From the NCBI RefSeq assembly GCF_003334315.1, contig NZ_QOWR01000038.1: a stretch of DNA of 45,313 nucleotides. One strand, written 5' to 3'. Positions 25,101 through 28,100 of the stretch are shown here, piece by piece; position 1 is the first letter of the stretch, and each line of letters starts with the position of its first letter. This DNA comes from Escherichia coli (lineage in GTDB: Bacteria > Pseudomonadota > Gammaproteobacteria > Enterobacterales > Enterobacteriaceae). Position numbers: made by a program.

Positions 25101-28100
25101 CGCATTAAGCCCGCAGCCAGGCTGGGCAGAGCGCGATATGGCAGAACTGTGGCAATGCTGCATGGCTGTCATTCGCGCCCTGCTTACTCATTCTGGTGTT
25201 AGCGGGGAACAAATTGTCGGTATCGGCATCTCCGCACAGGGAAAGGGCTTGTTTTTGCTGGATAAAAACGACAAACCGCTCGGGAATGCTATTTTGTCCT
25301 CGGACCGCCGGGCGATGGAAATCGTTCGTCGCTGGCAGGAAGATGGCATCCCGGAAAAACTCTACCCGCTGACCCGACAAACCTTGTGGACCGGGCATCC
25401 GGTGTCGCTGTTACGCTGGCTGAAAGAGCACGAACCAGAACGCTACGCGCAAATTGGCTGCGTGATGATGACGCACGACTACCTGCGCTGGTGTTTAACT
25501 GGCGTCAAAGGCTGTGAAGAGAGCAATATTTCCGAGTCCAACCTCTACAACATGAGTCTTGGGGAATATGACCCGTGCCTCACCGACTGGCTGGGGATCG
25601 CTGAAATCAATCACGCCCTGCCGCCTGTTGTCGGATCTGCCGAAATCTGCGGGGAGATCACCGCTCAGACAGCCGCCCTGACCGGTCTGAAAGCGGGTAC
25701 GCCCGTTGTTGGCGGCCTGTTTGATGTGGTTTCCACCGCACTCTGCGCCGGGATCGAAGACGAATTTACCCTCAATGCGGTGATGGGGACCTGGGCGGTG
25801 ACCAGCGGCATAACCCGCGGTTTACGTGACGGTGAAGCGCATCCGTATGTCTATGGTCGCTACGTTAACGATGGTGAATTTATCGTTCACGAAGCCAGCC
25901 CTACCTCTTCCGGCAACCTCGAATGGTTTACCGCACAGTGGGGAGAAATCTCGTTTGATGAGATCAATCAGGCCGTTGCCAGCTTGCCGAAGGCTGGGGG
26001 CGATCTCTTTTTCCTGCCGTTCCTGTACGGCAGCAACGCCGGACTCGAGATGACCAGTGGTTTCTACGGGATGCAGGCCATTCACACCCGCGCGCACCTG
26101 TTGCAGGCCATCTATGAAGGGGTGGTGTTCAGCCATATGACCCACCTCAACCGAATGCGCGAACGTTTTACTGATGTTCACACCCTACGCGTCACTGGCG
26201 GCCCGGCGCACTCCGATGTCTGGATGCAAATGCTGGCGGACGTCAGCGGTCTGCGTATCGAGCTGCCGCAGGTGGAAGAAACCGGCTGCTTTGGTGCGGC
26301 CCTTGCCGCCCGCGTCGGCACCGGGGTTTATCACAACTTCAGCGAAGCCCAACGTGACTTGCGACACCCGGTGCGCACCCTGCTGCCAGATATGACCGCC
26401 CATCAGCTTTACCAAAAAAAATATCAACGTTATCAGCATCTCATTGCCGCACTTCAGGGCTTTCACGCCCGCATTAAGGAGCACACATTATGAGCCGACC
26501 ACTTCTGCAACTGGCCCTCGACCACTCATCACTTGAAGCCGCGCAGCGCGACGTGACGCTGTTAAAAGACAGCGTCGATATCGTCGAAGCGGGCACCATT
26601 CTCTGTTTAAACGAAGGGCTTGGCGCGGTGAAAGCCTTGCGCGAACAGTGCCCGGACAAAATCATCGTTGCTGACTGGAAGGTCGCCGACGCTGGTGAAA
26701 CGCTCGCGCAACAGGCGTTTGGCGCAGGCGCTAACTGGATGACCATCATCTGCGCCGCGCCGCTCGCGACGGTAGAAAAAGGCCACGCAATGGCACAACG
26801 CTGCGGGGGTGAAATTCAGATAGAGCTGTTCGGTAACTGGACGCTGGACGACGCCCGCGACTGGCATCGTATTGGCGTGCGGCAGGCCATTTATCATCGC
26901 GGTCGTGATGCACAGGCCAGCGGGCAACAGTGGGGCGAAGCCGATCTGGCACGCATGAAGGCGCTTTCAGATATCGGCCTTGAGCTTTCCATTACTGGCG
27001 GGATTACCCCTGCTGACCTGCCGCTGTTTAAAGATATCCGCGTGAAAGCGTTTATTGCCGGGCGGGCACTGGCAGGCGCGGCAAATCCGGCGCAAGTGGC
27101 TGGCGATTTCCATGCGCAAATCGACGCTATCTGGGGAGGTGCGCGTGCGTAATCATCCGTTAGGGATTTATGAAAAAGCGCTGGCGAAAGATCTCTCCTG
27201 GCCGGAGCGGCTGGTGCTGGCAAAAAGCTGCGGTTTTGATTTTGTCGAAATGTCGGTGGATGAAACCGACGAACGGCTCTCACGTCTTGACTGGAGCGCC
27301 GCACAAAGGACTTCGCTGGTTGCCGCGATGATCGAAACAGGTGTTGGGATCCCGTCGATGTGCCTGTCCGCACATCGTCGCTTTCCTTTTGGTAGCCGTG
27401 ACGACGCGGTACGCCAGCGAGCACGGGAGATCATGAGCAAAGCGATTCGTCTGGCACGCGATCTCGGCATACGCACCATCCAGCTGGCGGGCTACGACGT
27501 CTATTACGAAGACCACGATGAAGGCACCCGGCAACGTTTTGCTGAAGGGCTGGCGTGGGCGGTCGAACAGGCGGCGGCATCACAAGTCATGCTAGCGGTG
27601 GAGATTATGGACACCGCGTTTATGAACTCCATCAGTAAATGGAAAAAGTGGGACGAGATGCTCGCCTCGCCGTGGTTCACCGTCTACCCGGACGTCGGCA
27701 ACCTCAGCGCCTGGGGCAATGATGTTCCCGCCGAACTGAAACTGGGCATTGACCGTATCGCCGCGATCCACCTGAAAGACACCCAGCCAGTTACCGAGCA
27801 AAGTCCCGGACAGTTCCGCGACGTGCCGTTTGGCGAAGGCTGCGTCGATTTCGTTGGCATCTTCAAAACGCTGCATAAACTGAACTATCGCGGTTCTTTC
27901 CTGATTGAGATGTGGACCGAAAAAGCCAAAGAGCCGGTGCTGGAGATTATTCAGGCGCGGCGTTGGATTGAAGCGCGTATGCAGGAGGCTGGATTTATAT
28001 GTTAGAGCAACTGAAAGCCGACGTGCTGGCGGCAAATCTGGCGCTTCCCGCTCACCATCTGGTGACGTTCACCTGGGGCAATGTCAGCGCGGTAGACGAC

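Follow-up and report, generated by a model that had tools for sequence, protein, structure and literature searches.

The sgbU gene of Escherichia coli is very probably translated from a GTG codon that lies within the 3′ end of the preceding gene, sgbH, yielding an epimerase of 286 amino acids (aa). This codon occupies positions 27145..27147 of the stretch of DNA analysed here (contig NZ_QOWR01000038.1 of RefSeq assembly GCF_003334315.1, 45,313 nucleotides (nt) in full; hereafter the window), and it is an already known start, being the same as that in current public annotation: our analysis confirms the annotated GTG, and there is thus nothing new in the start assignment. A mechanical list of open reading frames (ORFs) opens the same frame upstream, at a TTG, and a preliminary description of the window had preferred the GTG to this longer form. 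That preference is borne out by the RefSeq and K-12 annotations, by comparative data, by family profiles, by a paralogue of solved structure and by the energetics of Shine-Dalgarno (SD) pairing, but the description overlooked two further in-frame candidates, an ATG at 27112 and a GTG at 27139.

The junction is compact, and all of its elements lie on the plus strand. The upstream gene, sgbH (26490..27152; 220 aa, with its stop codon TAA at 27150-27152), encodes a 3-keto-L-gulonate-6-phosphate decarboxylase; it is present in the ORF list and in RefSeq, is labelled ulaD by the Prokaryotic Genome Annotation Pipeline (PGAP), and corresponds to K-12 b3581. sgbU itself (27145..28005), annotated as L-ribulose-5-phosphate 3-epimerase or putative L-xylulose-5-phosphate 3-epimerase, begins before sgbH ends, such that start and stop overlap by 8 nt (GTGCGTAA, 27145..27152) and the sgbH stop lies 5 nt past the GTG. 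The SD sequence GGGGAGG (27133..27139) is contained in the Trp-Gly-Gly codons of sgbH (TGG GGA GGT, from 27131) and is followed by a spacer of 5 nt before GTG 27145. The TTG that opens the frame in the ORF list (27055-27057) lies wholly within sgbH, exactly 90 nt 5′ of the GTG and in frame with it, and would give a protein of 316 aa ending at 28005, whose first 30 codons (27055..27144) are a spurious extension made of sgbH 3′ coding sequence read out of frame. The coordinates that the preliminary description gave for the TTG, the sgbH stop, the SD, the GTG and the overlap were all found to be correct when reread from the sequence and the ORF list. Between the TTG and the GTG lie the two remaining candidates, the ATG at −33 (27112..27114; 297 aa) and the GTG at −6 (27139..27141; 288 aa), positions being counted from GTG 27145.

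Public records agree on this start. The RefSeq/PGAP entries for strains CP53 (100% identical), APEC O1 and MB06234 all place it at the base equivalent to window position 27145, and in K-12 MG1655 the gene b3582 (3749232..3750092) encodes 286 aa and overlaps the end of sgbH (3749239) by the same 8 nt; the product from the GTG has the length expected of it. Positions 1-30875 of the window, from glyS to yiaU, represent the E. coli chromosome and are 99.9-100% identical to that of CP53. The K-12 gene (NP_418039.2) shares with the window allele the GTG start, the GGGGAGG SD and the overlap with sgbH, and its junction is identical in DNA from −99 to +12, whereas over sgbH-sgbU as a whole the window allele is 98.2% identical. 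The exact 286-aa product is present on at least 1000 public contigs. The 297-aa form from the ATG occurs as a single entry in NCBI nr (WP_001232371.1), and neither the 316-aa nor the 288-aa form has an exact match in a collection of about 15 billion proteins.

To compare this junction across taxa, we used 83 related loci, 80 of them from a scan of one genome per species (77-98% protein identity) and three from E. coli records. A start codon is present at the homologous position in every one of them, ATG in 75 and GTG in eight; seven of the eight GTG loci are of Escherichia type (four from E. coli, one each from E. albertii and E. whittamii, and one from a metagenome-assembled genome labelled Citrobacter). 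The junction with the upstream decarboxylase gene, on the other hand, ranges from a 4-nt gap to an 8-nt overlap: the genes overlap by 8 nt in 24 loci, by 4 nt in six and by 1 nt in 14, and are separated by 1, 2 or 4 nt in 39. The frame in which the upstream DNA stands relative to sgbU therefore changes from taxon to taxon, and in the 59 loci outside the 8-nt class it is not that of the extension; the start codon keeps its place although the reading frame before it lacks homology between taxa. Within E. coli, three junction haplotypes were counted among 4857 genomes that carry the locus, GGT-GCG-C in 1884, GGC-GCG-C in 396 and GGC-AAG-C in 2523, these counts being disjoint only on the assumption that the 28-base word of megablast makes hits span the central variable bases. 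All three haplotypes contain GTG 27145, which is thus kept in at least 4803 of the 4857 genomes.

The pattern of substitutions on either side of the GTG distinguishes coding from non-coding use of the sgbU frame. Among the 24 loci whose genes overlap by 8 nt, the upstream 90 nt have variable sites at 12, 29 and 18 of 30 positions when grouped by first, second and third position of the sgbU frame; because second positions in this frame are third positions of sgbH, the peak indicates that variation follows the sgbH frame. Just past the overlap, at sgbU codons 4-33, the corresponding numbers in the same loci are 8, 5 and 28 of 30, as is characteristic of a region that codes in the sgbU frame. Translated as the extension, the upstream DNA gives a mean pairwise amino acid identity of 0.49; in the SgbH frame this value rises to 0.79, and SgbU residues 4-33 reach 0.97. 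In addition, in-frame stop codons interrupt the extension in five of the 24 loci (E. coli SCPM-O-B-8794, E. albertii, E. whittamii, Yokenella and Tolumonas). The 30 upstream codons, whose conservation across species the preliminary description had named as a check on its choice, are thus not conserved as protein, with 29 of 30 second positions variable and stops in close relatives. Judged from these substitution patterns, no purifying selection is detectable in the extension frame, and the region does not qualify as dual-coding.

Potential pairing with the ribosome singles out the same codon. We took as the anti-SD energy that of the best duplex with the 3′ end of 16S rRNA in the 20 nt 5′ of each candidate codon, and by this measure GTG 27145 (−12.6 kcal/mol) is the strongest of the 68 ATG, GTG and TTG triplets in 26490-28005; the values for GTG 27139, ATG 27112 and TTG 27055 are −7.2, −3.3 and −0.1 kcal/mol, respectively. 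A TGG[GA]G motif, supplied by the codons for a conserved Trp-Gly or Trp-Arg pair at the C-terminus of SgbH, is found 11-14 nt 5′ of the start in 83/83 loci, and in none of the 39 loci that possess upstream in-frame NTG codons does any of these have an SD as good as that of the homologous start. We infer that initiation in the cell occurs at GTG 27145. As a separate observation, the Escherichia-type GTG loci have a mean anti-SD energy of −11.6 kcal/mol, against −7.8 kcal/mol in ATG loci with the same 8-nt overlap. A stronger SD in the GTG loci may fit a compensation for the weaker start codon, the seven close relatives amounting to approximately one observation.

Homology of the encoded protein likewise begins at the GTG. 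Run against the 316-aa ORF, the equivalog profile TIGR00542 scores 524 bits (cut-off 272.15), with the full profile (1-279 of 279) aligned to residues 32-316, and NF009689 scores 510 bits (cut-off 200), with positions 2-285 of 286 aligned to residues 32-315; position 2 of the latter model falls on residue 32, which places its position 1 on the GTG codon (residue 31). The sequence of the UlaE crystal structure 3cqh aligns from residue 33, and residues 1-31 of the long ORF are matched by neither profile nor by 3cqh. Profile scores, coverage and operon context, with sgbU standing between decarboxylase and 4-epimerase genes, assign SgbU to the L-ribulose-5-phosphate 3-epimerase family (SgbU/UlaE), its activity being a prediction; the K-12 annotation labels the product as “putative”. 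A parallel arrangement occurs in the paralogous L-ascorbate (ula) operon, where ulaD and ulaE follow the same order of decarboxylase and 3-epimerase, the upstream protein ends in L-W-G with codons that feed an SD-like run, and the N-terminus of UlaE aligns with that of SgbU. The ulaE gene differs in having an ATG start, an intergenic gap of 9 nt and a separate GGAG, with no overlap between the genes.

The N-terminus of SgbU also shows a peculiarity of the reference strain. Residue 5 of SgbU (codon at window positions 27157-27159) is Pro in the window and in all 83 related loci, within the sequence H-P-L-G-I-Y-E-K-A, whereas K-12 has Gln (CAG). Because Pro5 is otherwise invariant, the K-12 reference strain carries a substitution in the N-terminus of this enzyme.

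The alternative to GTG 27145 that survives best involves the GTG at 27139. In the roughly 39% of E. coli with the GGT-GCG-C haplotype, to which both the window and K-12 belong, initiation could occur at both GTG codons and produce two proteoforms (M-R-V-R-N... and M-R-N...), which we regard as unlikely; that GTG 27139 replaces or accompanies GTG 27145 as the start and gives a 288-aa protein beginning M-R-V-R-N-H seems very improbable. The evidence in its favor comes from INRI-seq, a cell-free profiling of initiation with synthetic K-12 mRNAs that include the 30 nt upstream of each annotated start. For K-12 sgbU, whose junction matches that of the window, Table S3 of that study includes an in-frame GTG at −6 (35.7 counts per million (CPM), 2/5 replicates) and an out-of-frame CTG at −14 (37 CPM, 3/5 replicates). 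These two peaks count against the assignment of GTG 27145, as do two negative results: no paper on the start site, and no experiment that maps the N-terminus of SgbU directly, turned up in a full-text literature search for sgbU, and sgbU is not mentioned in those TRAINSPOTTER N-terminomics supplements (2026 paper) that were searched.

Several features of GTG 27139 argue against its use. The last base of the SD core GGAGG (27135-27139) is already the first of this codon, leaving a spacing of about 0-2 nt, far from the usual optimum, and the duplex available within its own −20..−1 region is the −7.2 kcal/mol given above. Nor is the codon conserved: a GTG at −6 is present in one of the 24 loci of the same geometry and in 1884 of 4857 E. 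coli genomes, whereas GGC GCG C or GGC AAG C stands there in no fewer than 2919; public protein sets lack the 288-aa form. Moreover, INRI-seq is cell-free and assigns peaks to codons within ±3 nt, and many “alternative” entries at −6, −7 or −14 stand beside other annotated starts, so its peak at −6 is weak evidence; the in-vivo Ribo-RET column of its table of alternative translation initiation sites reads 0 for both sgbU entries (−6 and −14). GTG 27139 is thus a minor ambiguity in the assignment of the sgbU start. The CTG at −14 corresponds to window position 27131 and would open an ORF of ten codons ending with the TAG at 27161-27163 (27131-27163); its signal probably reflects a ribosome parked on the strong SD rather than a real small ORF. 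We also considered the dual-frame initiation at AUGUG or GUGUG described in PMC9841429, which is ruled out because the start here reads GUGCG.

Initiation at ATG 27112, with a product of 297 aa, is highly improbable. Simple gene callers would normally prefer this in-frame ATG to a GTG, its product is represented in NCBI nr by the entry cited above, and an ATG at −33 recurs in 14 of the 24 same-geometry loci. But in the other ten the codon is ACG, ACA or ACT, a variation that arises because sgbH uses the T of the ATG as the third base of a His codon, where CAT and CAC are synonymous. Its anti-SD duplex reaches only −3.3 kcal/mol, all seven of the second positions of the sgbU frame between −33 and −13 are variable, the family profiles begin 11-12 residues past its Met (at residue 31/32 of the long ORF), and current RefSeq annotation does not use it in CP53, APEC O1, MB06234 or K-12. 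INRI-seq is silent on both this codon and the TTG, as its oligonucleotides extend 30 nt 5′ of the annotated start and so do not include −33 or −90.

Initiation at TTG 27055, with a dual-coded N-terminal extension of 30 residues lying entirely in sgbH, can be regarded as effectively refuted, since close relatives, an E. coli among them, have stops within this frame: no NTG stands between the last in-frame stop and the TTG, which recurs at −90 in 17 of the 24 loci, but it is built from sgbH Ile-Ala codons (A-TT G-CC) and recurs because these SgbH residues are conserved, it has virtually no anti-SD pairing (−0.1 kcal/mol), its extension varies at second positions, lies in another frame in 59 loci and is covered by neither profile nor structure, and its exact 316-aa product is missing from the roughly 15 billion proteins searched.

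The 316-aa frame is instead an artefact of the rule by which an ORF is opened at the earliest NTG that follows the preceding stop in its frame. The open stretch 5′ of GTG 27145 is no more than expected by chance: under uniform codon usage a stop-free run of 33 codons has a probability of about (61/64)^33 = 0.2, and the stop-free length 5′ of the homologous start has a median of 99 nt in the 83 loci (range 3-411). Such overshoot stems from the listing rule itself, since the longest ORF extends beyond the annotated start, by 3-105 nt, in seven of the 28 annotated genes of the window. Besides sgbU, the longest ORF exceeds the RefSeq start by 105 nt in avtA (TTG), 78 nt in xylF (TTG), 42 nt in yiaB, 12 nt in xylA, 6 nt in ysaA and 3 nt in yiaA, the overshooting ORFs including those at 8966-10036 and 17513-18871. 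Similar flags on start choice elsewhere in the window are likely to be the same artefact.

With GTG 27145 as the start, the layout of the junction suggests how sgbU might be translated. Most likely, either 30S subunits or terminating 70S ribosomes engage the GGGGAGG SD, which the codons of a conserved Trp-Gly pair near the end of sgbH provide, and begin at the GTG; because the sgbH stop lies 5 nt beyond this codon, a ribosome finishing sgbH would come free directly over the sgbU start. Translational coupling between genes whose stop and start overlap, such as trpE-trpD, is a general phenomenon in bacteria. The sgbH-sgbU pair resembles such genes in that the upstream stop lies within a few nt of the downstream start, an arrangement conserved between −4 and +8 nt in 83/83 loci and an 8-nt overlap in the window, and in that the SD lies inside the upstream coding sequence, the TGG[GA]G motif again being found in 83/83 loci. 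Coupled translation of sgbH and sgbU, with which the preliminary description held the overlap to be consistent, is therefore plausible. The neighboring junctions are equally tight, the stop of lyxK (L-xylulokinase; 24997..26493, plus strand) overlapping the sgbH ATG by 4 nt (ATGA) and the ATG of sgbE (L-ribulose-5-phosphate 4-epimerase, labelled araD by PGAP; 27999..28694, plus strand) overlapping the sgbU stop by 7 nt, so termination and reinitiation may plausibly run along the whole order lyxK-sgbH-sgbU-sgbE, which is the same in the window and in the RefSeq records. However, an SD of this strength could also support initiation at sgbU independently of sgbH, which counts against coupling.

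We did not rely on RNA structure as a basis for coupling. In the window the region −13..+2 has a predicted unpaired probability of 0.24, with the SD pairing to CUCUCC at sgbU codons 17-18, but this pairing is not conserved across the 83 loci and the partner is lost wherever Ser is encoded by AGC. The predicted SD-sequestering structure is largely limited to Escherichia and some Enterobacter loci, in which respect the junction differs from known coupled pairs. Over the 83 loci, the predicted accessibility of the ribosome-binding site has a median of 0.44, compared with 0.37 at control positions, i.e., it is slightly more open.

Other features of the window lie outside this junction. The interval between sgbE and yiaT (about 28726-29020) holds two short RefSeq pseudogene fragments, a remnant of an AraC-family gene and a hypothetical one (ysaC/ysaD in K-12); in APEC O1, sgbE is followed immediately by aldB, this pseudogene segment and yiaT both being absent. 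Just downstream of avtA, on the minus strand, there is a match to the Rfam family of the ES036 (CssrF) small RNA (18898-18940; 46.1 bits, gathering score 37.6). The window remains collinear with the E. coli chromosome up to the 3′ end of yiaU (about 30875), beyond which yiaV, yiaW and aldB are replaced (30875-45313) by an ISAs1-family transposase gene (31076-32215, plus strand), an O-antigen-type cluster of 11 genes on the minus strand (32308-43647; manB, manC, gmm, fcl, gmd, glycosyltransferases, an EpsG/Wzy-like gene, a Stealth-domain gene and a Wzx flippase), a JUMPstart element (43653-43691) and galF (43962-44855). Out of 5,426 complete E. coli genomes, a single record contains the cluster at 99.9%, within a segment flanked by IS26 on an NDM-5 plasmid (NZ_CP048012.1). 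The position of an O-antigen locus beside yiaU points to either a rearrangement mediated by insertion sequences or an assembly join.

The result matters little: the current public annotation of sgbU, with its GTG start and 286 aa, is right, and both the longer frame of the naive ORF list and the 297-aa ATG form in NCBI nr are mis-calls. The locus serves as a teaching example of how substitution patterns by codon position, together with variable junction geometry, decide the start codon in overlapping genes, and as an example of an SD formed by the codons of a conserved Trp-Gly pair in the preceding gene.

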